Source: a virus
Strand: one strand, 5' to 3'
Length of the DNA: 64,000 nt
Virus record (IMG/VR): IMGVR_UViG_3300045988_106519
Span: 51,386-115,385 of that record
Of the stretch, positions 4,708 to 64,000 are shown in pieces; the first letter of the stretch is position 1, and the number at the start of each line of letters is the position of its first letter. The notes under the pieces are model-generated. The model saw only the letters and a list, made by a program, of their open reading frames with translations, made no database searches and was not told the DNA's origin. The translations under genes were made by a program, and so were the position numbers.

Positions 4708-4736
4708 CAACGAAAAAATGCTTCAAATTTGATTGT

Positions 4737-7523: not shown

Positions 7524-7540
7524 GAGTAGAAGTTTGCAAT

Positions 7541-7571
7541 AGCCTAAGTTTTAATCGATTTAGGCTTTTTT
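7541..7571 (+). terminator. rho-independent terminator
   Basis: AGCCTAA/TTAGGCT stem followed by TTTTT. Confidence 0.6.
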
Positions 7572-7587
7572 AGTTATAGAAAGAAGT

Positions 7588-44962: not shown

Positions 44963-45835
44963 ATGACAAAGTATTTAGACAAGGTAGGCCTTACAGAGTA
45001 TACTAAGCTGATGAAGGCTCATGTAGCAAAGAGTACATTAAAAATTGGTGAATCATCTGGTACGGCTTATGACGGAGCAAAGGGTAAGGCAAATGCCGAC
45101 TTCATTAATGGAGTGAAAAACGGTAACCTCGCTCTTGTGTCACCAGAAATCAGAGGCAGATGGAATGTGTTCAACGCAGCTGGTACAGCAGTGGAATCAA
45201 TGGTTTCATCATCAACCTCTCTGTCACTTGAAAACGGTTATCAAGCATCATGGACAGGCGCATTCTCATATCCAACAGCAAAGGAAGGCCAGAAAGTTCC
45301 AACAAGTGTATCTGGTAATTGGACTGCACTTCCAGCAGCAAATACACCATCTGCAACATACACAACCCCAGAGAAGGTAAAGACTGACACCACCATCTCT
45401 GCAACCATCGCAGCTGCCAAAACTGGTCTTATGGTTGTTGGTTCAGATGTAAAGCCTGCAAGTGGCAATGACACAAAGACAGCATCTGCAAGCGTACACT
45501 TCTATCATCGTCGTTACTTTGGTTTGGCTTCAACATCAAATATAACAGCAGATGTTATAAAGGGTTTGAGTAAGACAGACCTTAATAATTCACGCACAGC
45601 AAAACTTGAAGGTATTTCGGCAACAGATGCTCAGTACTATGTAATAGCTTATCCAAAGATAATGGGTGAGTTGACTAAGATAGTACAGAATGGAGCCACA
45701 CCATTGCTGAATGGAGGTTTTGTAAAGAGTGAGGTAACAGTGACAAATGCAGCTGGTGCTTCAATAGTTTACTTGGTATACCGTACAGTAAACCCAGGAG
45801 CATTGAAGGATAACTCATTCCTGGATATAGCATAA
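44963..45835 (+). CDS. tail fibre/receptor-binding protein candidate 3 (290 aa)
   Basis: N-terminus MTKYLDKVGLTEY. Visibly GC-richer than its neighbours. Confidence 0.45.
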   Translation: MTKYLDKVGLTEYTKLMKAHVAKSTLKIGESSGTAYDGAKGKANADFINGVKNGNLALVSPEIRGRWNVFNAAGTAVESMVSSSTSLSLENGYQASWTGAFSYPTAKEGQKVPTSVSGNWTALPAANTPSATYTTPEKVKTDTTISATIAAAKTGLMVVGSDVKPASGNDTKTASASVHFYHRRYFGLASTSNITADVIKGLSKTDLNNSRTAKLEGISATDAQYYVIAYPKIMGELTKIVQNGATPLLNGGFVKSEVTVTNAAGASIVYLVYRTVNPGALKDNSFLDIA

Positions 45836-45868
45836 ATAATTGTTTAACATTAAAAACATAAAAAAGAT

Positions 45869-46891
45869 ATGGCATTAAAACAAGCAAATACGCTGGCTCC
45901 AAGTAATGTGTCAGCAACAGGTTTTGCCTTGGCAGACGCAAGACATATTGGAGGTCATAAAGTTGTAGCAAGTCTAACAGCTTTGTATGCATTGCAGGAT
46001 TGGCAGCTGCTTAATCCTGGGGAAACAGACACAGCATTGGCATTAGGTCAGCAGTGGTATGTTAAGGGAATTGGTTTCTATAGACTAACCAACTGGGCTA
46101 ATCGTAAAACATCAAGTGGTTGGATAAAGGAAGTAGATCCAAATAACATTGACACTACTCTTTTTCAGATTGTGTCTGCTCTTCCTACAAGTGGTATTAA
46201 TAAGAATCGTATATATATTTTAGCTTCAGAAAACAGAGACCCTAATGGTAAAAATATATATGCCGAGTATATTTATACTGGTGATACCTCAGCCACCTAT
46301 GATGAAACCAAGTGGGAGAAAATGGGTGAGTATACAACCACAGTGGACTTATCTCCTTACATGAAGTTGGAGCAGAAGGGTGTGGCTAATGGTGTAGCTA
46401 CCTTGGATGCAAAGGGTAAGGTTACTGACAACCAGTTGTGGGATGCAACAAGCGAGAATCATGGCTTGATGTCAGAAGAAGATAAGAAAATTCTTGATAC
46501 AATCAATGACGATATCTTTAATGGTAAATACTCCGATGTATGTAAGTTTGATGATATATTTACACCACTGGGGGATGTTGAAATACTTCAGCAATCACTT
46601 TCTGATTCTGTAAAATATGATATTATCTATCTTACAACTAAAAATATGTTTGTAGCAAGACATGGGGGTAAATATTATATTAATTGGGATGATAAAACAG
46701 GAACTTTTGGTGATTTAAATACTCCAGTAGAAGGTAAATTGTATTTAAAGAAAGCAGAACTGATATCAGTGGCTGGTTCGATTGCATCACCTACTTTATA
46801 TACGGGTGATAGTAAAGGTCTCTATCCTCTTGTTAATGAAAAGGATATTGAAGTGATGTCTAATGCTGAGATTGATGCTTTGTTTACATAA
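45869..46891 (+). CDS. tail fibre protein candidate 4 (340 aa)
   Basis: The VANGVATLDAKGKVTDNQLW motif is common in phage tail fibres. Confidence 0.5.
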   Translation: MALKQANTLAPSNVSATGFALADARHIGGHKVVASLTALYALQDWQLLNPGETDTALALGQQWYVKGIGFYRLTNWANRKTSSGWIKEVDPNNIDTTLFQIVSALPTSGINKNRIYILASENRDPNGKNIYAEYIYTGDTSATYDETKWEKMGEYTTTVDLSPYMKLEQKGVANGVATLDAKGKVTDNQLWDATSENHGLMSEEDKKILDTINDDIFNGKYSDVCKFDDIFTPLGDVEILQQSLSDSVKYDIIYLTTKNMFVARHGGKYYINWDDKTGTFGDLNTPVEGKLYLKKAELISVAGSIASPTLYTGDSKGLYPLVNEKDIEVMSNAEIDALFT

Positions 46892-46913
46892 AACATAAGC
46901 TATAACAAGTAAA

Positions 46914-46957
46914 TAAAAAAAGTGGTGAACTTTTAGAAGGTTCACCACTTTTTCTTT
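46914..46957. terminator. bidirectional rho-independent terminator
   Basis: Perfect 10-bp stem AGTGGTGAAC/GTTCACCACT flanked by A7 and TTTTCTTTG. Lies between convergent genes. Confidence 0.8.
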
Positions 46958-47039
46958 GCTTTATTCTATCATATCCAAATCTTCTACAGCTGTTTGTATC
47001 TTTATATTTATTACCTTGTTCACTGTCTTATGTGTTTTT

Positions 47040-48026
47040 CTAAGTTTTATTTGTTGAGTCTTTAGCTTTATTTAGTAACACCATAAGAGAAGTTCTTAAA
47101 TCATCTTGTTTTACAAGATTAAGTTTCTTTCTAATATGAGTGCGTTGGCTTGTGATATTAGAAGGAGTTTTGTGAAGGGTGAAACATATTTCTTTTAAGG
47201 ACTTACCAATAAGAATGAGTTTACAGATTTCTACTTCTGAGGGTGTGAGGGATGGACAGATTGAGAGAAGGTTGATTGTTTCTATATACTGCTTATGGTA
47301 GTAATCTTTAATGTTATTGAGGAGTTCTTCTTGATGAGTAGAAGACAGTCTTGATAGGAGAGAATAGACTTTCTCCTTATCAGACTCATTAAGGTTGATA
47401 AGCATGTCAATAGCAGACTGTTCTTCTTTGGTGATTCTGTCGGGGAGACGAAGACCTTTGGTGGCATTCTTAGAGTCGAAGATTATGACATAGAGAATGA
47501 ACATATAACCAACAAAGAAGACTCGCATGACTCTAAAGATGTGGTGGAGAGGAGAAGTGATGCAGAAGATGATGAGACAGATGGTTAGGATTGTTGTTAT
47601 GATGGTAGCCAACTTATTTAGACGCACAGCTATGGATATTGAGGCAAGGATGAGGATGATAGTGAAGTTACCAAGAATGTGGGTACCATAAGCACCCTCT
47701 GTAGATAATTCGTAAAGAGATTCTGCTGATAGCTTTATAGCAATAGCAGTAAAGAAGATGTAGACAGATGCTTTGGTGGAAAGAGTGTTAGTCCAGAAAA
47801 GAATCTGTAGGATAATGACAAAGATAAGGTGAAGCCAGTTGTAGGTATCAAAGATGGTGGAATGATGGTAGTCATTAAGACCAAGAATGTTTGCAGGAAT
47901 ATAAAAAAGTTCTACAAAAGTAGTGAAAAGGAAACACACAAATTGTCTGCGCTCCTGAAGACCACAGTAATAAGGATACTTGAAGTGTTCAAGCTTACTT
48001 ATAAAATTAAAGAAAAATGTTGTCAT
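47040..48026 (-). CDS. multi-pass membrane protein with C-terminal LuxR/GerE-type HTH (328 aa)
   Basis: About 6 hydrophobic helices in aa 25-185. The C-terminus LTPSEVEICKLILIGKSLKEICFTLHKTPSNITSQRTHIRKKLNL matches the LuxR-family HTH pattern. Confidence 0.65.
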   Translation of the reverse strand: MTTFFFNFISKLEHFKYPYYCGLQERRQFVCFLFTTFVELFYIPANILGLNDYHHSTIFDTYNWLHLIFVIILQILFWTNTLSTKASVYIFFTAIAIKLSAESLYELSTEGAYGTHILGNFTIILILASISIAVRLNKLATIITTILTICLIIFCITSPLHHIFRVMRVFFVGYMFILYVIIFDSKNATKGLRLPDRITKEEQSAIDMLINLNESDKEKVYSLLSRLSSTHQEELLNNIKDYYHKQYIETINLLSICPSLTPSEVEICKLILIGKSLKEICFTLHKTPSNITSQRTHIRKKLNLVKQDDLRTSLMVLLNKAKDSTNKT

Positions 48027-48069
48027 AACTATTATATTGTTAGAATAAAGAGTGAATTAATAACAAAAG

Positions 48070-48077
48070 CAAAGTTA
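48070..48077 (-). promoter_or_regulatory. -7 box TAACTTTG (minus strand)
   Basis: The plus strand reads CAAAGTTA. It lies 43 nt upstream of the ATG at 48026. Confidence 0.45.
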
Positions 48078-48113
48078 AGAATAATAAATAGAAAAAGAAA
48101 ACCTGTAATGTTA

Positions 48114-48184
48114 AAACTGAAAAAATAAGTAAAAATCAGTTTTTCTATCAATAAAAATCAGTAACTTTCAGCATTTTTCAGTTT
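48114..48184. promoter_or_regulatory. operator-like repeat set in a divergent promoter region
   Basis: Perfect 11-nt inverted repeat AAACTGAAAAA(48114-48124)/TTTTTCAGTTT(48174-48184) enclosing two direct AAAAATCAGT copies (48131, 48153). Confidence 0.45.
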
Positions 48185-48215
48185 ATAATCACTTGTTATA
48201 CTTATAATATTGAGA

Positions 48216-48223
48216 TAATTTTG
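48216..48223 (+). promoter_or_regulatory. -7 box TAATTTTG
   Basis: 42 nt upstream of the ATG at 48266. Confidence 0.45.
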
Positions 48224-48265
48224 TCAATGTTAAGCTAATACAACGACATTAAAAAACTTAGTATT

Positions 48266-48844
48266 ATGAGAAAAAGACAAAAGAAAGAAGAAACAAAAGA
48301 CAGTGGGGACACTGTAGTAAGAGAAAACATAATCTGGAGATTCTATCAATGTGCAGCAGTGATATTTCCTATATTGTTGATGTTATCACATTGGTGTATT
48401 TTTTATGTTTTTAGTCAAAACACACAAGAGCTGATGAAATATTCAGATCAGAATGAGATATGTATAGCATGGATATACGTATTTCTTTTCTTGGTGTTGC
48501 CATTAATAACATTACCAGCAAGTTTTCTTTATGGATGGTGTAACTTCCTCAGAGTACCATTTGTGTATTTTATATTTATTAATGTAGAGAGATGGTATTA
48601 TGGCTCATGGTTTTGTACCAATGAAATGGTTGACACACACTATATCCTTATATACTGTATACTCTGTATATATGCAATGGATATAGCGGAGATATGTGTA
48701 AAGCATAGGAAGAATGTAGGAGGAATCCTAAAATCCATGTTGATATGCTTATTGAAGATACTTAGAAAACCATTTGAGGGAAATGAGAAGACTAATGAGT
48801 TGTATAATGAGGTAATGATGGAAATGGAAAGGAGGAAGCAATGA
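48266..48844 (+). CDS. multi-pass membrane protein (192 aa)
   Basis: About 4 hydrophobic helices. The stop overlaps the next ATG. Confidence 0.6.
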   Translation: MRKRQKKEETKDSGDTVVRENIIWRFYQCAAVIFPILLMLSHWCIFYVFSQNTQELMKYSDQNEICIAWIYVFLFLVLPLITLPASFLYGWCNFLRVPFVYFIFINVERWYYGSWFCTNEMVDTHYILIYCILCIYAMDIAEICVKHRKNVGGILKSMLICLLKILRKPFEGNEKTNELYNEVMMEMERRKQ

Positions 48845-49176
48845 CAACACCTGGAGAACAATGGTTGTGTAGAGCACTGGACAGATTCAAGGAAATAGTG
48901 ATGAAAGGACTTTGCTCAAAGGTAGATATTACCTATTTCAGCAACTTATTAAAGTATGAGTTTGGTAGAAGAGAAGTTAGTATAGATGAAAAGGAGTGGT
49001 TGACTAAGATAGAAACAAGTAAGCTGCTTGGAGTAAGTACTTCAACTTTAGACAGAATGATATCAAGAAAAAAGTTTCCAAAAGGAAGGAAGATAGTGCA
49101 TCAAAAGCACTTAGTATGGAAGAGAGAAATAGTTGAGCAATATAAGGAGACAATGTTACTCAAAAGAAAGACTTGA
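48841..49176 (+). CDS. Xis/AlpA-type HTH DNA-binding protein (111 aa)
   Basis: LTKIETSKLLGVSTSTLDRMISRKKFPKGRK...LVWKREIVEQY fits the excisionase/MerR-like HTH_17 pattern. Confidence 0.5.
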   Translation: MTTPGEQWLCRALDRFKEIVMKGLCSKVDITYFSNLLKYEFGRREVSIDEKEWLTKIETSKLLGVSTSTLDRMISRKKFPKGRKIVHQKHLVWKREIVEQYKETMLLKRKT

Positions 49177-49197
49177 TACACAATGACTTATGATATG

Positions 49198-49230
49198 GGT
49201 TGAGCAATGTTATGTTGCCCAACCTTTTTT
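49198..49230 (+). terminator. rho-independent terminator
   Basis: GGTTGAGCAA/TTGCCCAACC stem (1 mismatch), then TTTTTT. Confidence 0.6.
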
Positions 49231-49234
49231 ATTG

Positions 49235-49242
49235 TATCTTTG
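49235..49242 (+). promoter_or_regulatory. -7 box TATCTTTG
   Basis: 66 nt upstream of the ATG at 49309. Confidence 0.45.
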
Positions 49243-49308
49243 CAATGTAGTCGATTACATAGTGTTTTATATTTTTTTGATAGTTAATTGCTTAATAAAG
49301 ATTGTATC

Positions 49309-50079
49309 ATGGATATGACAAATGAGAAAGTCATTGAGAAAAAGGTTTATGAAGATGACAACAGAAAGCATGATTATGCAAGCAAAGGTGTTGCAGGAAC
49401 AGCCCTTGGTTTAGGTATAGCAGGCACTGCATTGGGAGTATTACCTTGGCTTACAGGTAATGGTGGTCGCAGTATTTTTGGTTCCCTTGGTAACGGTATG
49501 CCAGACAATGTAAACATCAATACTTATGGAGGTATGTCTGCTAATAATGCAGCTCCAACAGCTCTTGAGGTAATGGAGAAGGAATGTGCAGATGAAGTGA
49601 AGTTGCTTACAGACATGTTTGGACTGAAGCTTGACACTGCAAATAAATTCTATGCAATGAGAGAGACAGATGTGGCAGAGAAGTTTGGCTTGTGGAAAGG
49701 CTTTGTAGAGGCACAGAATGCTGAGAATAGGAGAGCTATGGAGGCAGAGTTTGGTCTTTATAAGAGTCAGAGAGATAGTGATGACAAGTTGAAGGATGCA
49801 ATGGTGCAGCAAGGCTTTGGACTCTACAAGAGTCAGAGGGATGGATATGATGCACTTAATGAGAAATATGCTGCAAAGTTCAATGAACTTGACAAGAAGG
49901 TAGCTGTAATGGAAGCTATACGTCCATATCAGGACAAGCTGTTGATGGACTATACTGACAAGAAGACTTGCAAGTGCATATATGGTCAGCTTGTATTGCC
50001 AAGTACTCCTACAGTTACAGGTTATGGCAGTTATCAGGGCTGCAACTGTGTCAGTAGTGGAACACCAGCAGGAGCCTAA
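49309..50079 (+). CDS. single-TM protein with internal FGL(Y/W)K repeats and Cys-rich C-terminus (256 aa)
   Basis: ATG at 49309 (the track start is TTG). Gly-zipper TM GVAGTALGLGIAGTALGVLPWL. Repeats FGLWKGFVEAQ / FGLYKSQRDSDD / FGLYKSQRDGYD. Confidence 0.55.
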   Translation: MDMTNEKVIEKKVYEDDNRKHDYASKGVAGTALGLGIAGTALGVLPWLTGNGGRSIFGSLGNGMPDNVNINTYGGMSANNAAPTALEVMEKECADEVKLLTDMFGLKLDTANKFYAMRETDVAEKFGLWKGFVEAQNAENRRAMEAEFGLYKSQRDSDDKLKDAMVQQGFGLYKSQRDGYDALNEKYAAKFNELDKKVAVMEAIRPYQDKLLMDYTDKKTCKCIYGQLVLPSTPTVTGYGSYQGCNCVSSGTPAGA

Positions 50080-51777: not shown

Positions 51778-54168
51778 ATGGCTTATAATGCAATAGGAGG
51801 TTTCCCACCACAACAGCTTTCTTTTAATAAGAAAGGAAAGAAGTGGAGAGCTAAATGTGTAGATTTTGGAGATGACCATAGCTTGATGCACTATCATCTT
51901 ACAAGAAAATCAGTAAGAGCAATGAAAATAAACTATGACTTACTGAATGGAAGAATACACATGGATGACTTAAAAGTTATAGTGAACCCTTATAATATAG
52001 AGGCATCCTTTATACCAGAGAATATACAACACTATCCAGTTATAAATTCAAAACTTGAAGTTCTTAGAGGAGAAGAGTCAAAGAGAACTTTTGACTTTAA
52101 AGTGATTGTGACTAATCCAAATGCTGTGTCAGAGATAGAAGAAGAGAAGAATCTACAAGTAAATGCAATGCTTCAACAGCTTGTGATGGATGGTTCTATG
52201 GATGAGGAAAGCTTTAACAGAGAAATGGAGAAACAGGCAGACTACTTTACTTATGAATACCAAGACAAAAGAGAAGTAAGAGGAAATCTGCTGCTTAATC
52301 ACTATATGAAGGAGCTTGAAATGTCACAACTCTTTAATAAGGGATTTGTAGATGCTTATACCGTAGGAGAAGAAGCTTATATATGTGATATAGTCGGAGG
52401 AGAGCCATACTTGGAAAAGATAAATCCTCTGAAGATGAGAGTAATAAAGTCAGGAGCTTCATCATATATAGAAGATGCAGACATGATAGTGTTGGAAGAC
52501 TATTGGAATCCAGGAAGAGTAATAGATACTTTTTGGGACCAACTATCTAAGAAAGATATTGAAGCATTGGAAAACACAAGAAGTAGTACAGGAAGTAGTC
52601 CTTATGCAGACAGTATGGATAATATAGATAGCAGATATGGTTTTATACCTAATGTAAATTTGTCAACTGCTGGAGATGAAGTTATAGATTCATATAGTTT
52701 GTTTGATAATGAGGATGATACATCTTATCTGCCCTATGACATGAATGGAAATGTAAGAGTATTGAGAGTTTATTGGAAGTCAAGGAGACAGATAAAAAAA
52801 GTGAAAAGTTATGACCCTGAAACAGGAGAAGAAGAATTTAACTTTTATCCTGAGACCTATCACAGTAACCCAGACAAAGGAGAAGAGGAACAGACATTTT
52901 GGATTAATGAGGCATGGGAAGGAACAAAGATTGGAGCAGATATATATGTGAACATGAGACCAAGACCAGTGCAATATAACAGATTGAGCAATCCATCAAG
53001 ATGTCACTTTGGTATTGTGGGAAGTATATATAACCTTAATGGTGATGAACCATATTCATTGGTAGATATAATGAAACCATATTCTTACCTATATGATATA
53101 TTTCATGATAGACTTAATAAAGTACTTGCAAAGAATATGGGAAAGATAGTTAGAATGGACCTTGCAAAAACACCAAAAGGATGGGATGCAGATAAATGGT
53201 TGTATTATATTAATGTGAATGGTGTTTCAGTAGAAGATAGCTTCAAGGAAGGCAGTGTAGGTATGGCAACTGGTAAGCTTGCAGGAGCAATGAACAATGC
53301 TTCATCAGGAGTTATAGATGCTTCTTTGGGTAATGAGATACAACAATACATAAATGTGCTTGAATGGATTTCAACAAAGATAGGAGAGCTTGCTGGAATA
53401 TCAAAGCAGAGAGAAGGACAGATTAGTAATAGAGAGACTGTTGGAGGTGTAGAAAGAGCAACACTACAATCGTCACTCATTACAGAAAGACTCTTCTTTA
53501 CCCATGACAGTGTGAAGAAGAGAGTACTGGAATGTTTCTTGGAGACAGCAAAGATAGCTATAAGAGGCAGGAAGAAGAAGTTTGACTATATATTGAATGA
53601 TGGAAGTAAGAAACTTGTTGAGATAGATGGTGATGAATTTGCAGAGTGTGACTATGGAATAGTAGTGGATAACAGCAATGGTACTATGGAACTTAACCAG
53701 AAACTTGATACACTGGCACAGGCAGCACTTCAGAATCAGTTGCTTGACTTCTCTTCAATAATGAAGCTCTATACTACAACAAGTGTTGCAGAAAAGCAGA
53801 GAATGGTTGAGGCTAATGAGAGAAGGAAGAGGGAAGAAGCATTGCAACAGCAGCAACAGGCACAACAGATGCAGCAAGCACAGTTACAGCAGCAACAGCA
53901 GATTGCACAGATGAAGGCAGAGCAGGAATATAAGATGCACCAAGAAGATAATGAGGTGAAGATATTGGTTGCTCAAATAAATTCTAAGGCTGAAGCTGAT
54001 AGGATGTCTATCATGAATAATGATGCAGCTGATACTGCTACACTTGAAAGAGAAAAACTATCAGAGAATGCAAGACAATTTAATGAAAATCTTGCTCTGC
54101 AAAAGAAGAAGCAAGCTGATGATGTGAGGATTCAAGAGAAAAAAGTGAATGCAGCATTGAAGAAATAA
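51778..54168 (+). CDS. portal protein candidate (796 aa)
   Basis: Size fits. Q-rich C-terminal coiled coil (QQQQQAQQMQQAQLQQQQQIAQMK) like barrel-bearing podovirus portals. Has GISKQREGQ-type loops, an AGGAG RBS, and its own promoter and terminator. Confidence 0.6.
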   Translation: MAYNAIGGFPPQQLSFNKKGKKWRAKCVDFGDDHSLMHYHLTRKSVRAMKINYDLLNGRIHMDDLKVIVNPYNIEASFIPENIQHYPVINSKLEVLRGEESKRTFDFKVIVTNPNAVSEIEEEKNLQVNAMLQQLVMDGSMDEESFNREMEKQADYFTYEYQDKREVRGNLLLNHYMKELEMSQLFNKGFVDAYTVGEEAYICDIVGGEPYLEKINPLKMRVIKSGASSYIEDADMIVLEDYWNPGRVIDTFWDQLSKKDIEALENTRSSTGSSPYADSMDNIDSRYGFIPNVNLSTAGDEVIDSYSLFDNEDDTSYLPYDMNGNVRVLRVYWKSRRQIKKVKSYDPETGEEEFNFYPETYHSNPDKGEEEQTFWINEAWEGTKIGADIYVNMRPRPVQYNRLSNPSRCHFGIVGSIYNLNGDEPYSLVDIMKPYSYLYDIFHDRLNKVLAKNMGKIVRMDLAKTPKGWDADKWLYYINVNGVSVEDSFKEGSVGMATGKLAGAMNNASSGVIDASLGNEIQQYINVLEWISTKIGELAGISKQREGQISNRETVGGVERATLQSSLITERLFFTHDSVKKRVLECFLETAKIAIRGRKKKFDYILNDGSKKLVEIDGDEFAECDYGIVVDNSNGTMELNQKLDTLAQAALQNQLLDFSSIMKLYTTTSVAEKQRMVEANERRKREEALQQQQQAQQMQQAQLQQQQQIAQMKAEQEYKMHQEDNEVKILVAQINSKAEADRMSIMNNDAADTATLEREKLSENARQFNENLALQKKKQADDVRIQEKKVNAALKK

Positions 54169-55755: not shown

Positions 55756-58700
55756 TTAGCAATATTTGTGGAACTCATCAATAGCCTCATCCTCATTGAG
55801 GTCAAGACCTTTGTGCTTAAAGACCTTTTGAAGGAACTTACGGAACATCTTTTCTTTGTCCTTGATTTCCAAAGCAAGTTTTTCAGCACCTTCATGATCA
55901 AGCTTAGGATTCTGAAGCATAATCAAGTCAGCAATAGCAGAAAGATTCTTGACTTCCTCTGTCTTAGTGATGACTGGAGTTTTGACAGATTCTTCAGCAC
56001 TTAACTCTTGATGACTTTCAGTCTTTAAGTCTGTGGCAGACTCCTGTACAGTAGCTGTGATTTTATTCTCAGAAACACTTGAAGTGTCGCTTAAAGGATT
56101 GACAATCTCAGAAGTACTAATCTCAAGATACTCACCATTATTACCAAGAGGTTTTACTCTCTTAAAAGTAAGCTCATTTGGAGAAGAAGTTTCAAGATGC
56201 CAGAGATAAGTCTCCTTACCTACTTTTGTCTTCATGTAGGAGACATCTGTAAGATCAGCTATTTCTTCTGGTCTGTATACTCTAAGTTCACCAGTCTTGA
56301 GATTGACATTATAGTGAGTATCCTTACCACCTTTCCATGGAACAAGTTTAGTGTTATCCCAATTATTGCGGATGAATTGATTAATCACCAACTTAGGAAC
56401 AACAGTAGGGAAGTGTCTATAAGTGTCAACATAAGAAGCACCAGTATTTTCATTCATCAATCTTTCCTTGACATAAGTAGGAACCAATGCCATGAAAGTC
56501 TTAGGAGAAAAACCAATGCCAGCACGGAAGAAACTATAGTCAAACAACATCTTAGAGAGCTTAGGGTCAGCCTTATGAAGGTCAATCCAAGCACTACGAA
56601 GTTCCTCCTTACGCTGTTCATCCATACCAGTGATATTAATTGTAAGATAAGGATGTCCTGTCTTCTTAGAAACATTCATCCTAATGGCTTGAATAAGCTC
56701 ATTATTAGGAAATTCATCCTTGAAGTTCTGCTCCATAAACCACTTAGGGAATGCTGTTGCATAGTCCTTGAGATTCTTAGAGTCAATAACCCCAGACTGT
56801 ACAAGAAGATAAGACTGATAGAAGTTAGAGAACTGGTCAAGTAATTTCTTATCACCATACATCTTGTCAGCAATATCCTTTGGCAACTTAGCAAGCAAGT
56901 TTCTGAATCCAACACTGCCAGCAGGCATGTCAGAGAACAGAGACTTAGCTATATCAACAGTTCTTGCAAACTGCTTCAAGACAGGATGGTCAAAGAATAT
57001 GTCATCAATATCCACAGGAACATCATCAGCAGTGTAGAAGTGAGTACCATTATCAGTATTGGCATCAATAAACTGAGACATTTTGTGCTCAATTATAAGA
57101 TTGTCAATGATGAGTGGACCAACAGCACTGGAGATAGAATTGAATCTTGTAGCATAAGTAGGCTTACGCATAGCATCAGTAAGACTTCTCATCTTTTGGA
57201 AAGCAAGCAGTACTTTATAATCAGTAGCTTCATGCTCCTCAGAAGTAAGACCATTAACAAGTTCCTCAGTAGAAAGAGGTTCAGTGTTGATATTAGAAGA
57301 GTCACTGATATTATACTTCTGACGATAAGTGTCAAGCCACTTATTGATGAGACCATCAAGAGACACATAGTTAGTAAGATTATCCCTATTGAACTGACTA
57401 AGCAGACGCTCTATAACATCCTGAGATAGGAAGAGAGCAGCATCATTGAAAGTCATACCCAATCTCAACATAGTATTAAGCATACCAGCAGTAGTCATAT
57501 TGACATTCATAAGATTGAGGATAGGATCTTTCACAGCATCAGCAGAAGCAGATACAAGAGAACCAAGAGTCTTACCAATAAGAGTACCTTCACGGTCATA
57601 CTTCTGGTCTATCTGCATTCTACCACCAAAGGTAGTGCCAGCAATAGTGAAATCATCATTACCACAAATCTCAGATACATCAAGGAATATGTCATTACTC
57701 TCAAGAGTAGCATGAGCTACTTTATTGACAGCAAACACACCAATCAATGATGCAGCAGCAGAGTTCTGCTTATAGAACTGAACCTGAGTATCAGCAAATG
57801 TAAGGTCTTTGTCAGTATAAGACAACTTCTTGAGTTCATCAATAGACATACCTTGAAGAGCATTCCAAGAGATACCCTTATTAGCAGGATTCTTATAGGC
57901 AGCAACCATGTATCCCATCTTCTTAGGAGCATCAAAGCCACCAGGATTAAGAATCTTGTCAGCAGTCATCTGATTGGTAAGAACAGCATAAGTCATATCA
58001 ATAATCTTGTTATCTCTATATGTTCTACCAAAAGTAGGAGCATCAGTATAGTAAGCAACTTGTTGATATTGACCATAAAGCCATTGCATAAACTTATCAG
58101 TAAACTTCATCTTCTGAGGATTGTCAAGGAACATTCTTACCTGCTCACCAATCCATTGGTTGTTAGTTTTACCATTATGAGCCTTAGCATAACTTTCAGA
58201 AGCTCTCTTAAAGAGTTCATTTTCAATATCCTTCCTTCTTTTAGTCTTAATAGGTATGTCTTTACGCATGACATAACGCTTATCAACATCAAAGTCAGAA
58301 TCATCAATCTCAGTAAGCTCATAAGGAAGCATAATAGCATCACCAGCTTCACGAGGCATAAAACCAACAACCTTCATAGGAGCACAAGAGTACTTATCCT
58401 CAGTAGGAATACGGTAGCTAACCATTTTAAGAAGTTCTGGATCAACAGCATTGATAGCATCAACATTGATAGAACCATCAGCATTAGAGAACTTGTCAAA
58501 AAGTTCATTAGACCATATAGGACAGAACACTTCAAAGTAAGCAATACCACCTTGATTCTTCTTAAGATAGTCTTTATAAGAAAGATCATCATGTTCAGAG
58601 GGAACATACTCCTCCTCAAGAGGAATGAGATTACCCTGCTTATCATTGAATCTAATGTGAAGCTGCTTAGAAGTACCAAAATTAGACACCTGAACAATAG

Positions 58701-61700
58701 GACCACCAGCAATCTTCTGCTTGTTAATTCTGTTCTTAATAACAGAATTTATAAGCTGTTCAATGCGTTTAGCCTGTATAGGGTCACCTTTAGGTATTCT
58801 AAATTCACCAGTCTCCTTATCAATAGAACAAGCCTGTACAAGGTCAATGCCATAACGAGGAGAAGATAAAACTTCTCTTTGAAGAATCTTAGAAAGAGCA
58901 ATATTTCTCTCACGCTTATCCTCACTATTCAAGTGAAGTTCAGCAGAAAGATTATTAATACTCTCTTCAATATTATCAGCAATAGTCTGCTCATACTCCT
59001 TACGGAACTCATCAGCCTTCATTCTCTTGACAGTACCATCAGGTTCAGTCCACTCATAGAAGTTATCCACTTGCTGACCATTCTCATCAATAGTGAAGAG
59101 GTCAAGGTCAGAGGGAGTAATCATTCTAATCTGAGAACCATGAGCCTGAGAATGCTCCTTGAAATGTTCAGGAACCTCCTGCTGAAGACAATAATCTTCA
59201 AAAGAAGTCTCATGTACAAAGGTATTAGTGTTATAGTTCTTATAAATTCTTTCACCTGTAGCATCAGTTTCTTCCTTGAAGATTTGATTCATCATAAAGG
59301 TATAGGCAGCATCCTCACCACCTTCCATATCTCTGAACTGATAGATATTCATCTTGCCTTGAAGACCAGACTTGATGGAAGATTCAAACTGAACAGTATC
59401 AATGCCTTTAGTAGGCATAAGACGTTCAGAGTCTTCCATTACTTTATAGACAGCTCTAAGAAGATTAGGACGAGAAAGCTTTTCACCTTTAAGGATAGCA
59501 TCAGCCATGATAAGAAGATACTCAGCATTCTTAGCTTGGAAAGGTACTTGCATACTGTGAATAGGAGCATTATCTACACCCATATCCTTAGTAAGTTTAG
59601 AATACACAAAAGGCTTGAGAGGCTGGAAAGCAGTCTCAAGGTCAGTATATGTGTATTCACCTTTAAGCATTTTTTGATAAATATCCTCAGCATGACGAGA
59701 CCATTTGCCAAAGATGTAAGCCTTCTTTCTGTAAGAAGAAGGAGAGGAATAGCCTTGAGCATCAGTGACATTAATATTAGTGTACTTACCATCCTTGCCA
59801 ACAAGAGACTCCTTGAGAGCAATCATTGCAGCCTTCTGATTGTCAGGGGCAGCAGCAATTCTGCGGTCAAATACCTCTGTGATATTAGCTATGATGTTAG
59901 ACTTGAAAGAATCAAAGTCTTGCAAGATGAAAGTTCTGTACTTACCATCAGACACTCTATTACCATCATAATCAATAGCGTTAATATTACCTCTGACACC
60001 AGGAGCATGAAGCTGAGCAAGACGTTTCTGCAAATCCTCAGTATCTTTGTAGAAAGCAATGTCAGAGAGAGTGAGTTGAAGAATATTCTTAGATGCAAAA
60101 GAATCATTCCAAAGGAAGTTCTCCACTTGCTTTCTAACCCAATCATTGATTACACCCTCTCTTTCCTCATTCTTTATGTTTGAAGAATTATCAAACTCAG
60201 AAGGATATATGTCCTTAATGTTCTTTGCAGCCTCAAGAATACCATTGCTTTCCCATGTATCAAGGATAGACTGTACTCTGTTCTCCATAGACTGACGGAT
60301 AACCCTTTCAGCAAGCTTACTAAGCTCAACCTCTTCATCAGGAGTAAGATTAATCTCACCATTGACCTTCTTCTGAAGAAGAGAAGCAAACCTATTATTG
60401 TCAGAAGATACAGAGCCATCCTCATTACGGAGAATAGTTCTCTTGGAAACAGCACTCTCTTCAAGATAGCTATTGAATACAGGAAGGAAGTTGAACTTAC
60501 GACCATTAGTATCAAAGTTCTTAATGAATCCAGGGTCATTCTTAGACATGTTTCTTCTAAGGACAGTCTGTATTCTACTAATCTCTTGTAGGAACATGTT
60601 ATGAAGACCATTAACAATAGCATTCTTATAACCGTCACCTCTATAAGAGTAGAACTTGATGAACTCAGAAGAAGGCTTATTAGATTGCATGGGCACTCTA
60701 TACCAAGCAGGAACTCTATCTTCAACTTTTGCACTCTCAGAGAAGTATTCAGTGATGAGAGAAAGAGTATATTCAGCATCACTCATATTGCGCATATAGT
60801 TATGCTTATTGAAGTTAAGCTCAACCTTATGGTCAAACACCTTACGAGCATTCTCATCTCTTGCAAGAAGTCTGAGCCACTCATTACGCCAACCCTTAGT
60901 AATATCACCATCACCAGCACCAAACTTAAACCATTCAGAAGAGCCATACTCATCAAGAATGAAATCCTCAAAAGCCTGACCTTCCTGACGGAACTTGTTA
61001 AAGAGCTTAGTCATGAATGAAGGAGTGACATAAGACTGATACATTTTACCACTATCATAGAAAGCATTGACAGCAGTATCCTCAAGCTTATCAGTAATAG
61101 GAGTGAGGAAGTTTTTCACAGAACCATCAATAGAATACTCACCTTTAAATTTGAAAGGATTGTACTTTTTAAGTTCTCCAGATTCTTGTTTCTGTAAAGC
61201 CTCATTTAAGTCATCTACCATAAACTTAAGATACTTTGTAATCTTGTGAATATTCTCAGCATTGACAACATCAGTAAGCAAGTCTTCAGTGACATTATAT
61301 CCTAAGACCTTACAAACAGCTATGATATTATCAGATGCAACCTTAGACATTTTATCATCAAGAGTATTGCCCTGCTTAATAGACTTATCTATATTCTGAA
61401 GTTCAGACAATGCCTTATGAAGAGTGAAGTCATTGCTAACAGAGTTAGCAGAACCAAGCAACTTAGTGTTAACCTTACCATTAATGCCAAAGAGAGGATG
61501 TTCTCCAATCTTGAATTGAGAAGTGATAGTATTCATCACATCTGTAAGAGCAGGATGACTATTAACAGCTATACTATGATACTTACCATCTTCAAGAAGA
61601 ACAACAGAGTAAGGTTGGAAATGCTTAGAGAACACTCCATAGAATTGGCTTTGGAAGTCAGTTTCACTACCACTCTTGTCAGACAATCTCTGAACAAGCT

Positions 61701-64000
61701 GAGAGAGCCAAGGGTTCTGAGACTGCTTGTCAGAGAGTTTCTTAACCATAGCATCAAGAGATAAGGAGCCTTGAGTCCAACGGAGAATACTATTTACAGC
61801 TTCACGAGGATTAACACGCTCTGCAATACCCCATTTACTCATAACCTTACTACTATCAGCATTAAGAAGATAACACTCATGAATGCCTTGTCTAACAAGA
61901 GCAGACATAGAGTTAAGAACATCAATAGTACGGTTTTCTATCTGCCAATGCTCTTGATCATCCTTCTCACCTTCCTCAGCAGCAATATCCTGGTCATTGG
62001 AATAGTCATTGAAGTTGTCATAGTCAATATAAGAATCACCAGTAGTAGTAAAGTTACCCTTAGAGAAATCCTTAGCAATACCAAAGCCTTCGTTCATAGC
62101 AAAGACATCAGCAGCAAGATACATGATAGCATCCCAGTTGTCAAAGATAAGGTCAGCTTGGAAACTGATACCATTTTCATCATCCTTATAGGAATCCCAG
62201 TTAGCTTCAGTATCAAATATAGACTTAACACTATCAATAAGACGGTTGATACCAACAGCCTCAACAATTTGCTTTCTTGAGGCAGATTGAAAGTCAAGGT
62301 CAGTCTTAAGGGTAGGGAATAGCTTTTCAGCAAGACCCTCTTCCTTTTGAAGCTTTGTTATTGAGTCAGAAATTTCATTGGCCACAAGTTCAGCAGTATG
62401 ACGAATCTCAGATGCAGAAAGATGTTCTATACCAAGTTCATCAAGATGATACACCTCACCATCAGACTCCAAGTCTTGATTGCCAAGAAGATTGTCAATC
62501 TGACGATTAAGTTTATCATACTCATCAAGAGTCTTTTCAACTTGCTTCTTTTCAGAGTTCTTAGACTCTTGAAGATACTCTTTTTCACTTGTAGATTGTA
62601 GAATGTTGTCCATGTGATTAATAATGTTTTGATTATCCTCTATAGAGTTTTCATCAGAGATTTGAGCATCAAGTTCCTTAAGATAAGGAATTTTCCAGGC
62701 AGCATCTACTGGTGTGTCCTCATAGAGGTCATTAAAGTATTCATAACTTGGAAGAAAAACTGTTGAAGGCTCTTCCTTAGTAGAGGTGGGAGGGGTGGTA
62801 GGTTTTGTAGGAGGTGTAGGGACAGTAGGGGTAGTGGGTTGAGTTTCTTTTGAAGGATTATCATAGAAATCTCCATCAATGACGTTGTATTGTCTTTCTC
62901 CATTGACAATCCTTACAAGCACATTCTGAGGCTTCAAGTCTTGTAGGAGATAGTCTTCTGTTTTGTAGGATGTGTTTCCTATGACAGAAGGGTCTTTTTC
63001 AGCATTAAACCTTTCTTTTACAAAAGAATCAATCTCTTCTTGAGAAGCATAAGCACCCTCCATAAAAGGTTGCTCAATAATAATAGAAAACTCATCATCA
63101 CCATTGCCAAAGCCTACAACTTTCATTGCAGTCTCAGGGAACAATGTATTGTGCAGTTCTATAGACCTTAGAGCATCAGAGACAGTATTGTAGCCAGTAA
63201 TACTGCGAGACTTGATAACAGTGTCTTTATCTTTTCTGTATACCCATGCCTCACTGCCATGACCAATTCTACCGCCATACTTCTTCTCTAATTTTGTGTC
63301 TACATTATCTGCCCATTTTCCTTGTTCCTTGGCGAATTTTTCAAGAGATTCTCTGTCTTCTTGGTTTCTTTTGTCGATGTCTTCCTGAGAGAGAACTCCT
63401 TGTTCCTGAGTTTCTCGTAGGTTTCCATCTCCTCTCTGGATTCTGGCTTGTGACTCAGCAAGTAATCCTCCATCGCTTGTCTGTTGTTTTCCTGCAACAG
63501 TTTCTGCATTTCTTGTATTGTTGCTTTCATTGTTTTCTGTTTTATTATTGGAACGTGAATTATCCTCTTTTATTGTAGTATCTTTGTGTAAAGGAGAACC
63601 TTCCTTCTTGACATTGTTAGACACAATGGTAACTGTGTCAGTGGCTCTGGAGACACCTACATATTCAAGCTGTTGCTTGAGATTGATAGTTTGAGTAGGT
63701 GCTGTATGTTTAGTGGGTTCAGTAAAAGATGTAGAGAAATTATTTGAAAATCCCAAATCAACATCTTCTGCATCTCCAGTGAAATTAGCACTTGAAGCTA
63801 CGTTATTATCTACTTCACCAAGGTCAACAACTTCCATAGCATTGTTACTATTAAGACCAGCTCTTGAAATGTCAACATCATCAATAAGAACATTGGTAAA
63901 GGTAGAGCCTTGAGACTTATGAACAGTCATGGCATAGCCAAAGTCAATGGTCTTAGCTTGAAGAAGGTTGTGATTACTGTCCTCAATATTATCGTTGACA
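55756..64000 (-). CDS. giant multidomain protein (>2,747 aa, N-terminus outside the window): SF1 helicase C-terminus + kinase-like core + beta-prime-like single-chain RNA polymerase
   Basis: The frame stays open from 64000 to the stop at 55756. Motifs seen: YAMTVHKSQGSTF / YVGVSRATDTVTIV (helicase); GHGSEAWV..VIK..DLKPQNVLV..DGDF (kinase-like); SYRIPTEDKYS...GDAIMLPYELTEIDDSDFDVDKRY (DPBB with DxDxD). Confidence 0.65.
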   Translation of the reverse strand, partial: VNDNIEDSNHNLLQAKTIDFGYAMTVHKSQGSTFTNVLIDDVDISRAGLNSNNAMEVVDLGEVDNNVASSANFTGDAEDVDLGFSNNFSTSFTEPTKHTAPTQTINLKQQLEYVGVSRATDTVTIVSNNVKKEGSPLHKDTTIKEDNSRSNNKTENNESNNTRNAETVAGKQQTSDGGLLAESQARIQRGDGNLRETQEQGVLSQEDIDKRNQEDRESLEKFAKEQGKWADNVDTKLEKKYGGRIGHGSEAWVYRKDKDTVIKSRSITGYNTVSDALRSIELHNTLFPETAMKVVGFGNGDDEFSIIIEQPFMEGAYASQEEIDSFVKERFNAEKDPSVIGNTSYKTEDYLLQDLKPQNVLVRIVNGERQYNVIDGDFYDNPSKETQPTTPTVPTPPTKPTTPPTSTKEEPSTVFLPSYEYFNDLYEDTPVDAAWKIPYLKELDAQISDENSIEDNQNIINHMDNILQSTSEKEYLQESKNSEKKQVEKTLDEYDKLNRQIDNLLGNQDLESDGEVYHLDELGIEHLSASEIRHTAELVANEISDSITKLQKEEGLAEKLFPTLKTDLDFQSASRKQIVEAVGINRLIDSVKSIFDTEANWDSYKDDENGISFQADLIFDNWDAIMYLAADVFAMNEGFGIAKDFSKGNFTTTGDSYIDYDNFNDYSNDQDIAAEEGEKDDQEHWQIENRTIDVLNSMSALVRQGIHECYLLNADSSKVMSKWGIAERVNPREAVNSILRWTQGSLSLDAMVKKLSDKQSQNPWLSQLVQRLSDKSGSETDFQSQFYGVFSKHFQPYSVVLLEDGKYHSIAVNSHPALTDVMNTITSQFKIGEHPLFGINGKVNTKLLGSANSVSNDFTLHKALSELQNIDKSIKQGNTLDDKMSKVASDNIIAVCKVLGYNVTEDLLTDVVNAENIHKITKYLKFMVDDLNEALQKQESGELKKYNPFKFKGEYSIDGSVKNFLTPITDKLEDTAVNAFYDSGKMYQSYVTPSFMTKLFNKFRQEGQAFEDFILDEYGSSEWFKFGAGDGDITKGWRNEWLRLLARDENARKVFDHKVELNFNKHNYMRNMSDAEYTLSLITEYFSESAKVEDRVPAWYRVPMQSNKPSSEFIKFYSYRGDGYKNAIVNGLHNMFLQEISRIQTVLRRNMSKNDPGFIKNFDTNGRKFNFLPVFNSYLEESAVSKRTILRNEDGSVSSDNNRFASLLQKKVNGEINLTPDEEVELSKLAERVIRQSMENRVQSILDTWESNGILEAAKNIKDIYPSEFDNSSNIKNEEREGVINDWVRKQVENFLWNDSFASKNILQLTLSDIAFYKDTEDLQKRLAQLHAPGVRGNINAIDYDGNRVSDGKYRTFILQDFDSFKSNIIANITEVFDRRIAAAPDNQKAAMIALKESLVGKDGKYTNINVTDAQGYSSPSSYRKKAYIFGKWSRHAEDIYQKMLKGEYTYTDLETAFQPLKPFVYSKLTKDMGVDNAPIHSMQVPFQAKNAEYLLIMADAILKGEKLSRPNLLRAVYKVMEDSERLMPTKGIDTVQFESSIKSGLQGKMNIYQFRDMEGGEDAAYTFMMNQIFKEETDATGERIYKNYNTNTFVHETSFEDYCLQQEVPEHFKEHSQAHGSQIRMITPSDLDLFTIDENGQQVDNFYEWTEPDGTVKRMKADEFRKEYEQTIADNIEESINNLSAELHLNSEDKRERNIALSKILQREVLSSPRYGIDLVQACSIDKETGEFRIPKGDPIQAKRIEQLINSVIKNRINKQKIAGGPIVQVSNFGTSKQLHIRFNDKQGNLIPLEEEYVPSEHDDLSYKDYLKKNQGGIAYFEVFCPIWSNELFDKFSNADGSINVDAINAVDPELLKMVSYRIPTEDKYSCAPMKVVGFMPREAGDAIMLPYELTEIDDSDFDVDKRYVMRKDIPIKTKRRKDIENELFKRASESYAKAHNGKTNNQWIGEQVRMFLDNPQKMKFTDKFMQWLYGQYQQVAYYTDAPTFGRTYRDNKIIDMTYAVLTNQMTADKILNPGGFDAPKKMGYMVAAYKNPANKGISWNALQGMSIDELKKLSYTDKDLTFADTQVQFYKQNSAAASLIGVFAVNKVAHATLESNDIFLDVSEICGNDDFTIAGTTFGGRMQIDQKYDREGTLIGKTLGSLVSASADAVKDPILNLMNVNMTTAGMLNTMLRLGMTFNDAALFLSQDVIERLLSQFNRDNLTNYVSLDGLINKWLDTYRQKYNISDSSNINTEPLSTEELVNGLTSEEHEATDYKVLLAFQKMRSLTDAMRKPTYATRFNSISSAVGPLIIDNLIIEHKMSQFIDANTDNGTHFYTADDVPVDIDDIFFDHPVLKQFARTVDIAKSLFSDMPAGSVGFRNLLAKLPKDIADKMYGDKKLLDQFSNFYQSYLLVQSGVIDSKNLKDYATAFPKWFMEQNFKDEFPNNELIQAIRMNVSKKTGHPYLTINITGMDEQRKEELRSAWIDLHKADPKLSKMLFDYSFFRAGIGFSPKTFMALVPTYVKERLMNENTGASYVDTYRHFPTVVPKLVINQFIRNNWDNTKLVPWKGGKDTHYNVNLKTGELRVYRPEEIADLTDVSYMKTKVGKETYLWHLETSSPNELTFKRVKPLGNNGEYLEISTSEIVNPLSDTSSVSENKITATVQESATDLKTESHQELSAEESVKTPVITKTEEVKNLSAIADLIMLQNPKLDHEGAEKLALEIKDKEKMFRKFLQKVFKHKGLDLNEDEAIDEFHKYC

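Follow-up and report, generated by a model that had tools for sequence, protein, structure and literature searches.

The subject of this analysis is a regulatory locus in a 64,000-nt stretch of viral DNA, here called the window, which covers positions 51,386 to 115,385 of the IMG/VR record IMGVR_UViG_3300045988_106519 and comes from a crAss-like phage. On the minus strand at 47040-48026, an open reading frame (ORF) encodes a 328-aa protein, termed TM-LuxR, in which a transmembrane (TM) domain is joined to a LuxR/GerE-type helix-turn-helix (HTH) domain, an assignment based on the ORF, a Pfam GerE match, AlphaFold2 modelling and Foldseek. An earlier reading of the DNA letters alone (the sequence-only reading) had described a minus-strand regulator gene here, and the peptide that it quoted corresponds to residues 260-302 of TM-LuxR. 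Across a 239-nt spacer, two genes are transcribed divergently on the plus strand, i.e., a gene for a 192-aa protein with four TM helices according to hydropathy (4-TM; 48266-48844) and a gene for a 111-aa HTH_17 protein of the MerR/AlpA/Xis class (48841-49176), whose ATG overlaps the 4-TM stop codon (ATGA). This pair is referred to as the 4TM-HTH17 operon. The locus is flanked by tail-like genes (44963-46891) on one side and by the portal gene (51778-54168) on the other. The architecture and fold of TM-LuxR, the selection acting on it, its host origin, the linkage of a sequence motif to its gene, the promoter and terminator limits of the locus and its presence or absence among phages were established by computation.

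Architecture of TM-LuxR and its divergent neighbours

The N-terminal part of TM-LuxR (codons 1-183; 47478-48026, minus strand) is modelled by AlphaFold2 as an amphipathic helix followed by a bundle of six TM helices at residues 23-47, 57-78, 84-110, 117-133, 137-157 and 160-183, which form a putative sensor domain. Modelled alone, this domain reaches a mean predicted local distance difference test (pLDDT) score of 88.4 and a predicted TM-score (pTM) of 0.84, and the full-length model has a pLDDT of 78. Hydropathy gives 5-6 TM segments and is consistent with the modelled order of an N-terminal amphipathic helix and six TM helices, in agreement with the about six TM helices proposed in the sequence-only reading. 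The predicted cytoplasmic side carries the Lys/Arg residues (two in the N-terminal tail, R26/R27, K85, R135/K138 and five after the sixth TM helix), and the three outer loops carry none. This charge distribution fits an N-in/C-in topology, which would leave the HTH on the cytoplasmic side. Judged by sequence position, the conserved polar residues of the bundle (E39, N46, K98, E102, N120 and R168) fall for the most part in the outer half of their TM helix. The membrane domain belongs to no Pfam or NCBIfam family, and neither sequence profiles nor fold comparison found a relative of it in the PDB. Geometrically, the bundle came closest to the membrane domain of ImcA, a diguanylate cyclase (8wcn; TM-score 0.55), but this match was rejected as noise (E = 9, probability 0.21), and a PADLOC search placed TM-LuxR in no defence-system family. 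The bundle is followed by a basic juxtamembrane stretch and a helical cytoplasmic linker (codons 184-258; 47253-47477, minus strand), in which AlphaFold2 places helices within residues 200-250 and gives low pLDDT for residues 185-220.

The C-terminal domain (codons 259-326; 47049-47252, minus strand) is a four-helix LuxR/GerE HTH, with AlphaFold2 helices at residues 262-272, 277-284, 288-301 and 310-326 and with SNITSQRTHIRKKL (residues 289-302) as the recognition helix. All of the top 50 Foldseek matches in the PDB are LuxR/NarL-type DNA-binding domains (LiaR, VraR, NarL, GerE, RcsB), which fit the HTH with a TM-score of about 0.8 and a root-mean-square deviation of 1.7-2.0 Å over 62-66 residues. 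The viral structure library BFVD, searched with TM-LuxR, returned matches to the HTH domain only. At the level of sequence, Pfam GerE (PF00196) matches residues 259-304 with E = 5.7e-5 (23.1 bits, gathering score 23.5), PF00196 is precomputed on several homologues (55-92% identity), and the family profile A3 matches StyR, NarL, LiaR and GerE at E = 0.002-0.015 (StyR and NarL at 0.002-0.003). Profile search and fold comparison thus agree that the C-terminus models as the LuxR-type HTH on which the sequence-only reading had staked its assignment.

The four-helix C-terminal fold found in NarL (1JE8), LiaR (4WUL), VraR and GerE (1FSE), to which the above TM-score of about 0.8 applies, belongs to the NarL/FixJ family, whose domains bind short repeats as dimers. 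In contrast to these proteins, TM-LuxR has no receiver domain, and its input domain is membrane-integral. ToxR, CadC and TcpP also possess an inner-membrane-anchored DNA-binding domain that couples an envelope or periplasmic signal to a promoter. However, these are single-pass proteins with an N-terminal winged helix of the OmpR type and a periplasmic sensor domain, whereas TM-LuxR is six-pass, carries a LuxR-type HTH at its C-terminus and has almost no periplasmic loops. DadR, HcdR and CadR of Eggerthella lenta are 10-12-TM LuxR-type activators that respond to small molecules (Dong et al. 2022, PMC9734109). They share with TM-LuxR a polytopic N-terminal domain, a C-terminal PF00196 HTH, a one-component design and neighbouring promoters as targets, but with their 10-12 TM helices they are about twice as long, occur in Coriobacteriia and lie beside catabolic enzyme genes (PMC9734109). 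TM-LuxR, by comparison, has six TM helices and 328 aa, is found in Bacteroidales and phage, and in the phage has no adjacent enzyme gene. Homology between the membrane domains was undetected: a phmmer search with residues 1-250 returned 26 representatives among 1.84 billion clusters, all of them of at most 356 aa (the longest of exactly this length), and DadR was not compared directly. Because of its six helices and the lack of detectable membrane-domain homology, TM-LuxR is not regarded as a member of the DadR family.

Phage-encoded LuxR-type quorum-sensing receptors have been described in Aeromonas phages, where they are soluble (Silpe & Bassler 2019, PMC6456758). Like these receptors and VqmA-Phi, TM-LuxR would be a phage-borne, host-type and signal-responsive transcription factor (TF) that 'listens in' (PMC6456758). 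However, the known receptors are soluble and carry an autoinducer-binding domain, whereas the N-terminus of TM-LuxR is a six-TM bundle. The distinction from soluble receptors such as VqmA-Phi that was drawn in the sequence-only reading holds, since TM-LuxR has no Pfam match to PF03472 or PAS and its residues 1-183 are the TM bundle.

The divergent operon had been described in the same reading as encoding a 4-TM protein and an AlpA/Xis-type HTH protein. The domains stand, in that the HTH_17 protein matches PF12728 over residues 53-103 (E = 2.8e-6; 27.9 bits, cut-off 27) and the 'excisionase and transcriptional regulator' family PHROG 66 (E = 3.9e-7). Its identity as an excisionase is not supported, because it scores 16.8 bits against the excisionase model TIGR01764, below the cut-off of 28.8, and is encoded about 44 kb from the integrase gene. 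A weak match of the HTH_17 protein to PADLOC mad1 was set aside as reflecting the HTH only. No Pfam, PHROG, NCBIfam or PADLOC family was found for the 4-TM protein, and NCBIfam has no family for TM-LuxR or the HTH_17 protein either.

Promoters and candidate operator in the divergent spacer

The -7 box of the TM-LuxR promoter, TAACTTTG (48070-48077, minus strand), fits TAnnTTTG and has 7 of 8 columns invariant across six non-redundant phage lineages; for that of the 4TM-HTH17 promoter, TAATTTTG (48216-48223, plus strand), the number is 6 of 8. The distance from the end of either box to its ATG is 43-44 nt, bearing out the -7 boxes that had been reported for both directions. A full -33/-7 promoter search of the window picked up neither promoter, and both are without a TTTG -33 element, which would suit a dependence on an activator. 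A sigma-70 scan gave a count close to that expected, the sigma-70 model being uninformative for a Bacteroidota host. On the far side of TM-LuxR, a bidirectional intrinsic terminator (46917-46953; a stem of 17 pairs with an A-run on one side and a T-run on the other) separates the gene from a convergent tail-fibre-like gene. The 4TM-HTH17 unit is closed on the plus strand by a hairpin followed by a U-run (49197-49230; dG -18.4 kcal/mol, z = -3.3, with 0 of 200 shuffles as stable). Rfam models over 46800-49400 gave only sub-threshold chance matches.

Between the two -7 boxes, the sequence-only reading had pointed out a perfect 11-nt inverted repeat (48114-48124 and 48174-48184, with 49 nt between the arms) that encloses two direct repeats of AAAAATCAGT (48131-48140 and 48153-48162), and all of these are present. 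An alignment of the spacers of 14 phage loci resolves them into five copies of one half-site, ACTGAWW. The half-site S1, AAACTGAAAAA (48114-48124, plus strand), is the left arm of the inverted repeat and lies 37 nt from the TM-LuxR -7 box. The other four are on the minus strand, with TCAG cores spaced by 22, 10 and 10 nt: S2, AACTGATTTTT (48131-48141), and S3, TACTGATTTTT (48153-48163), contain the first and the second AAAAATCAGT, respectively, and are followed by S4 (48165-48173) and by S5 (48174-48184), the right arm. S5 and S4 together form a core tandem, AAACTGAAAAATGCTGAAA (48166-48184, minus strand), with the pattern CTGAAA-N4-CTGAAA (48166-48181) and a 10-nt period, which is found once per TM-LuxR locus and lies 31 nt from the 4TM-HTH17 -7 box. 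This combination of an ACTGAWW half-site with a 10-nt direct tandem is specific to the TM-LuxR family as compared with NarL/FixJ proteins. Relative to the 4TM-HTH17 promoter, S5/S4 falls at about -45 to -60, and S1 is at about -55 relative to the TM-LuxR promoter. TTTTTCAGTTT has the same orientation as seen from either promoter, which explains why the 11-nt inverted repeat is perfect.

Could these repeats have arisen by chance in an AT-rich spacer, with TM-LuxR as decaying cargo? The spacer region is indeed AT-rich, and a single match to the tandem pattern is expected by chance alone in 64 kb (mean 1.1 with one mismatch allowed). The spacer holds the densest ACTGAWW cluster in the window (4 sites in 80 nt), which is equalled by 10 of 2000 random placements, and conservation across loci is far stronger evidence than this clustering. 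Among six non-redundant phage lineages, 11 of the 19 columns of the S5+S4 tandem are invariant, compared with 3 of 31 in the adjacent spacer. S3 is identical at 11 of 11 positions between the window and a related locus (L015) despite a synonymous divergence (dS) of 0.89 in the adjacent gene; S1 is conserved only in the closer phage clades. In 481 kb, comprising the window and the fetched loci, the pattern CTRAAA-N4-CTRAAA has 25 matches where 0.87 are expected (simulation maximum 4). It occurs once in every fetched locus that has TM-LuxR and its upstream region, L023 excepted, always on the TM-LuxR coding strand and 150 to 168 nt upstream of the ATG (in L025, at -537), and the only matches elsewhere are in three phage loci that lack the LuxR gene (L049, L064, L051). 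This excess, the fixed position and strand save in the three LuxR-less loci, the invariant columns across lineages with saturated synonymous divergence and the low ratio of nonsynonymous to synonymous divergence (dN/dS) in all three parts of TM-LuxR effectively refute chance and decay, an explanation that we regard as extremely unlikely. Being conserved across loci, the repeats are predicted to behave as the operator for which the sequence-only reading had taken them, between two divergent promoters of the Bacteroidota type.

Within the 64-kb window the tandem occurs once, with none near the integrase gene or in the sampled early-gene region. For a metagenome-wide scan with the operator, thousands of chance matches are estimated. 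In L025, palindromes resembling repetitive extragenic palindromes (e.g., GCGGATTACAAATCCGC) and a tandem repeat of GATGAAAA occupy 7417-7937 and push the operator out to -537.

Host origin, selection and distribution among phages

TM-LuxR has 144 relatives among 5.8 billion proteins, mostly 86-94% identical and located on phage contigs of 50-146 kb. The full-length representatives that were fetched measure 300-356 aa and all carry the same C-terminal HTH, and the recognition helix, SNITSQRxHIRKKL, is nearly invariant across the family. Searches of the locus, TM-LuxR, the 4-TM protein and the HTH_17 protein against 50,697 deposited phage genomes by blastn/tblastn returned nothing relevant.

The homologue P0120 (55% identical) is chromosomal in L004, where it lies between rpsO-bipA and GH92-luxS-pfs-yfhO, and its gene is also present in a Prevotella metagenome-assembled genome (L022). 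In L004 and in a second cellular locus (L023), the TM-LuxR gene is followed by a gene for a 319-320-aa transporter of the SBF (bile-acid:Na+ symporter) family. The TM-LuxR genes of L023 and L024 face a DUF3575-DUF3868/OmpA-fimbrillin operon. The TM-LuxR/SBF pair of L004 (4601-8178) is one gene, GH92, away from the autoinducer-2 synthesis genes luxS and pfs, which may be a coincidence. In a neighbour-joining tree, the phage TM-LuxR proteins form one clade with P0120 as its sister, nested among the remaining family, of which only three members are placed on cellular contigs. This topology fits a single acquisition of TM-LuxR by a crAss-like lineage from a Prevotella-like host.

The upstream regions of the cellular genes point in the same direction. 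The Prevotella locus with the 55% identical protein has ACTGAAATATGCTGAAAA at -168, followed by GCTGATTTGTACTTA, and the more distant cellular loci L024 and L025 (29-30% identity) share the tandem ACACTGAAAAACACTGAAAAG. Host and phage tandems are identical at 16 of 18 positions. The geometry is also the same in Prevotella L004 and in the phage, with the tandem ending about 90 nt and CTGATTTnTACTTA about 50 nt upstream of the -7 box. Based on this equal spacing, the gene arrived with its own promoter and operator. The recognition helices differ at one position, SNITSQRAHIRKKL in the host and SNITSQRTHIRKKL in the phage. Given this single difference and the 16 of 18 shared tandem positions, cross-talk between phage and host regulators is likely. 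The phage gene is under strong purifying selection, with a median dN/dS of 0.086 (0.09 in the TM domain, 0.04 in the linker, which is the lowest, and 0.11 in the HTH) at dS values of up to 0.89.

A change in the recognition helix is accompanied by a change in the site. Lineages with Ser293 (SNITSQR) have a CTGA-CTGA tandem in 8 of 8 cases, three distinct loci with Cys293 (L006/L010, L065, L067) have CTAA-CTAA, CTGA-CTAA or CTAA-type sites, and a distant member with an STISSHR helix (L066) has no such motif. In the family profile alignment, S293 is aligned to V189 of NarL, which we take to be a base-contacting residue in the NarL-DNA structure. The S293C change thus tracks the CTGA-to-CTAA change in the site, which is supportive, although not conclusive, of recognition of the tandem by the TM-LuxR helix.

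The operon is distributed differently from the regulator. Homologues of the 4-TM protein number 132, mostly on contigs of crAss-like-genome scale, and the HTH_17 gene directly follows the 4-TM gene in 30 of 30 IMG/VR loci. TM-LuxR is found upstream of the 4-TM gene in only nine IMG/VR loci, all belonging to the window's own clade. The pair is without an adjacent regulator in at least 13 IMG/VR loci for which 2.5 kb of upstream sequence is available, as well as in L030/L031, and in such regulator-less loci it directly follows a giant tail gene on the same strand. Since the pair is more widespread than the regulator, TM-LuxR is accessory to 4TM-HTH17.

Three of the phage contigs that have no adjacent TM-LuxR gene, L049/L064 and L051, nevertheless carry an identical 16-mer, CTGAAAAATACTGAAA, 5' of the 4-TM gene, inverted just as it is in the window, and none of these contigs is among the TM-LuxR matches of the IMG/VR scan. 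The distance from the tandem to the -7 box is 34 nt in L051 and 76 nt in L049/L064, compared with 31 nt in the window. The tandem therefore seems to function as part of the 4TM-HTH17 promoter. An operator that is kept without the gene would need to be served in trans, most simply by a paralogue in the host, and host regulators probably drive the promoter in these operator-bearing, gene-less relatives. Two histories are possible: the promoter may have been wired to a host regulator before the gene was captured, or the gene may have been lost and its site kept. In L049, three direct repeats of GGAATGAAAC (2308-2391) flank the tandem 5' of the 4-TM gene and are possible sites for a second regulator.

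The three contigs also bear on the question of which protein binds the tandem, since there it precedes an HTH_17 operon without TM-LuxR nearby. The HTH_17 protein or a general host factor might then be the binder, and the linkage to TM-LuxR would reflect shared regulation rather than recognition of its own site. However, in the cellular loci L004, L022, L024 and L025 the tandem lies upstream of TM-LuxR although neither an HTH_17 nor a 4-TM gene was called in the vicinity, most phages with HTH_17 have no tandem (the at least 13 loci and L030/L031), and the S293C/CTAA covariation points to the LuxR helix. Binding by another factor is thus considered very unlikely.

The similarity between the host and phage regulators raises a further alternative, namely that the phage copy hijacks a host regulon by mimicking the host regulator or by partnering with it in a dominant-negative manner, thereby remodelling the host surface or transport while the phage infects or is carried, with the operator in the phage serving for autoregulation only. 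The single difference in the recognition helix and the 16 of 18 identical tandem positions are compatible with this idea. So is the gene's moron-like character, with its own promoter and terminator on the strand opposite the structural genes. Retention of the tandem at the 4TM-HTH17 promoter of gene-less phages argues instead for a target within the phage, and the host species is inferred only. Overall, such hijacking is unlikely. The candidate targets, to which we give no better chance, would be host promoters with the same operator, e.g., those of the TM-LuxR/SBF-transporter and DUF3575-fimbrillin operons, in keeping with the cellular members that face DUF3575-DUF3868/OmpA-fimbrillin operons or precede SBF transporters.

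Role of the module and its phage context

The DNA binding, sign of regulation, signal and biological output that we infer for TM-LuxR can be put together as follows. TM-LuxR would be an inner-membrane one-component regulator, whose HTH must act at the cytoplasmic face of the membrane. The six-TM bundle may sense a membrane-soluble/lipophilic or periplasmic ligand, or the state of the envelope, and the helical linker of about 75 residues would pass the signal on to the HTH. As a dimer or higher oligomer, TM-LuxR would bind the ACTGAWW array, which is phased by 10-11 bp and has ACTGAAAAATGCTGAAA at 48166-48184 as its core. From this operator, it would regulate its own promoter and also control the divergent 4TM-HTH17 promoter, so that the module would act as a sensory input to one small operon and not as a CI-like core switch. 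It is fairly likely that TM-LuxR is indeed such a membrane one-component sensor of host origin, acting both on its own promoter and on that of 4TM-HTH17, and that the module is an accessory one.

Several results weigh against this proposal. The GerE score of TM-LuxR is 0.4 bit under the Pfam gathering threshold, and a narrow family profile (A1) found no match in the PDB at E<=0.001. The cellular locus L023 (49% identical) has only a degenerate tandem, and the window contains no second operator cluster, so that a wider phage regulon is unproven. The S293C/CTAA covariation amounts to one or two evolutionary events, and the Ser-type loci L002 and L008 also hold some CTAA sites, their proximal sites being mixed. 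In addition, the operators in gene-less phages could be remnants of gene loss rather than a sign of control by a host regulator.

A bolder version of the proposal concerns a group of Prevotella-associated crAss-like phages. In these, the 4TM-HTH17 operon would be wired to a host sensor family, and one lineage would have captured the sensor at the shared operator. The captured sensor would read an envelope or metabolite signal in the gut directly at the membrane, perhaps the substrate class of the SBF/bile-acid-type transporter that shares its operon in the host, and so set the carrier state, lysogeny or virion timing. This extension is possible but doubtful.

A different role had been favoured in the sequence-only reading, in which TM-LuxR, the operator and the divergent operon, with HTH_17 as the excisionase, formed the lysis-lysogeny or excision switch of the phage. 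An integrase gene (3341-4525) is present and conserved in relatives. The remark that no CI/Cro-like pair is visible near it was confirmed, no CI/Cro/XRE-like protein being found by Pfam around the integrase in the window and 10 kb past its left edge. Moreover, TM-LuxR and HTH_17 are the only clear sequence-specific HTH regulators among the window ORFs scanned. A relative of the phage is also found within a 651-kb scaffold and is maybe a prophage. The arrangement of a TF facing a divergent small operon further recalls the SOS-independent induction modules of temperate phages in which a TF lies beside a small operon, its proposed target, the TF-small ORF (smORF) modules (Silpe et al. 2023, PMC10432266). 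However, the small protein of those modules inactivates a master repressor, whereas here the operon encodes a 192-aa 4-TM protein and HTH_17 and occurs in most relatives without the TF.

The distribution of the locus also speaks against a switch. TM-LuxR is missing from most related phages, which keep 4TM-HTH17, and is a recent host-derived cassette. It lies about 43 kb from the integrase gene, between tail and portal genes. The operator is found at its own locus only, once in the window and not near the integrase or the sampled early genes. The HTH_17 gene, about 44 kb from the integrase and with a product below the excisionase cut-off, is always coupled to the 4-TM gene that heads the portal-side block. 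Finally, lysogeny of the window phage itself is unproven. In its position, its absence from relatives and its single operator, TM-LuxR does not resemble a CI/Cro-type core lysogeny component. The proposed switch was therefore not upheld, and we consider it quite unlikely.

crAss-like phages are among the most abundant human gut viruses, and to our knowledge almost nothing is known about their gene regulation and their coexistence with the host. The locus provides a testable crAss-like circuit that consists of a regulator, a 16-19 bp operator and two promoters, with natural controls in the phages that have the operator but no regulator and in the S293C/CTAA variants. Membrane-spanning LuxR regulators (PMC9734109), soluble phage LuxR receptors (PMC6456758) and modules of a TF with its neighbour (PMC10432266) were already known. 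What is new is a distinct six-TM family with a probable operator, its occurrence in a crAss-like phage and a phage promoter that shares the operator of a host sensor; the literature consulted did not specifically report a six-TM LuxR protein in Bacteroidota or any LuxR protein in crAss-like phages. The concept of membrane-spanning LuxR proteins is thereby widened from Coriobacteriia to a six-TM family in Bacteroidales. Should a gut metabolite be the signal, the phage would have acquired an environmental sensor of its host rather than a quorum-sensing receptor. If the bolder version of the proposal is right, TM-LuxR would be the first membrane-integral TF shown to work for a phage and would offer a way into the question of why crAss-like phages persist.

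The assignment of the window to the Crassvirales is based on its major capsid protein, large terminase and portal protein, all of which are of crAss type. With its counterparts in cr106_1, IAS virus and crAss001, the major capsid protein (11199-12722) shares 66-67% identity, and PHROG matches were obtained for the terminase (7588-9843; E = 1.8e-101), the major capsid protein (5.7e-110) and the portal (51778-54168; 1.6e-145). A near-identical contig has Pfam matches to Crass_capsid and CrAss_Ring.

The tyrosine integrase gene (3341-4525, minus strand) adjoins a tRNA-Arg(TCT) gene (4633-4708), with 107 nt between the latter and the integrase start. Two metagenome contigs (L033 and L034), independent of each other but with an identical integrase, start inside the tRNA-Arg gene, 169-170 nt upstream of the integrase. 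These breaks could mark the attachment site or could result from assembly breaking at a tRNA identical to that of the host. Because assembly at a host-identical repeat explains the breaks equally well, the tRNA-Arg gene beside the integrase was dropped as proof of integration. The 651-kb scaffold (L028) is an ENA scaffold of 651,275 nt that contains a relative of the window phage at 464848-485405, with a TM-LuxR about 61% identical, and this relative is also present on a 122-kb contig (L001/L029). The scaffold could represent an integrated prophage or a scaffolding artefact. Taken together, the conserved integrase, the relative within this scaffold and the contig breaks in tRNA-Arg hint at lysogeny.

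Some further observations concern other parts of the window and related phages. Another antisense island (29087-30398, minus strand) contains ORFs of 179 and 259 aa, neither of which has a Pfam or PADLOC match. Just 5' of the terminase gene, the region 6797-7523 holds a weak HU/IHF-like ORF (Bac_DNA_binding, E = 0.002, below the cut-off) and a GroES-like ORF (Cpn10, E = 1.2e-4; its 22.5 bits exceed the cut-off of 21.1). In L002/L003, which belong to a phage lineage with 73% identity, a 2413-aa tail-like gene lies downstream of TM-LuxR on the same strand, and no portal gene is present between DUF7841 and another giant gene, indicating that the tail module is inverted or rearranged with respect to that of the window. 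A 2724-aa ORF occupies 55756-63930 (minus strand) of the window, and in a related phage (L008, 16100-18399) a 4119-aa protein carries Kinase-PolyVal, PIF1 and AAA helicase domains. A DUF5675 protein (2003-2470, minus strand; E = 5e-30), whose gene adjoins the integrase gene, is weakly similar to L,D-transpeptidase and Tlde1; it also matches the 'L,D-carboxypeptidase' that cr85_1 (L027) encodes in a lysis cassette of the crAss001 type.

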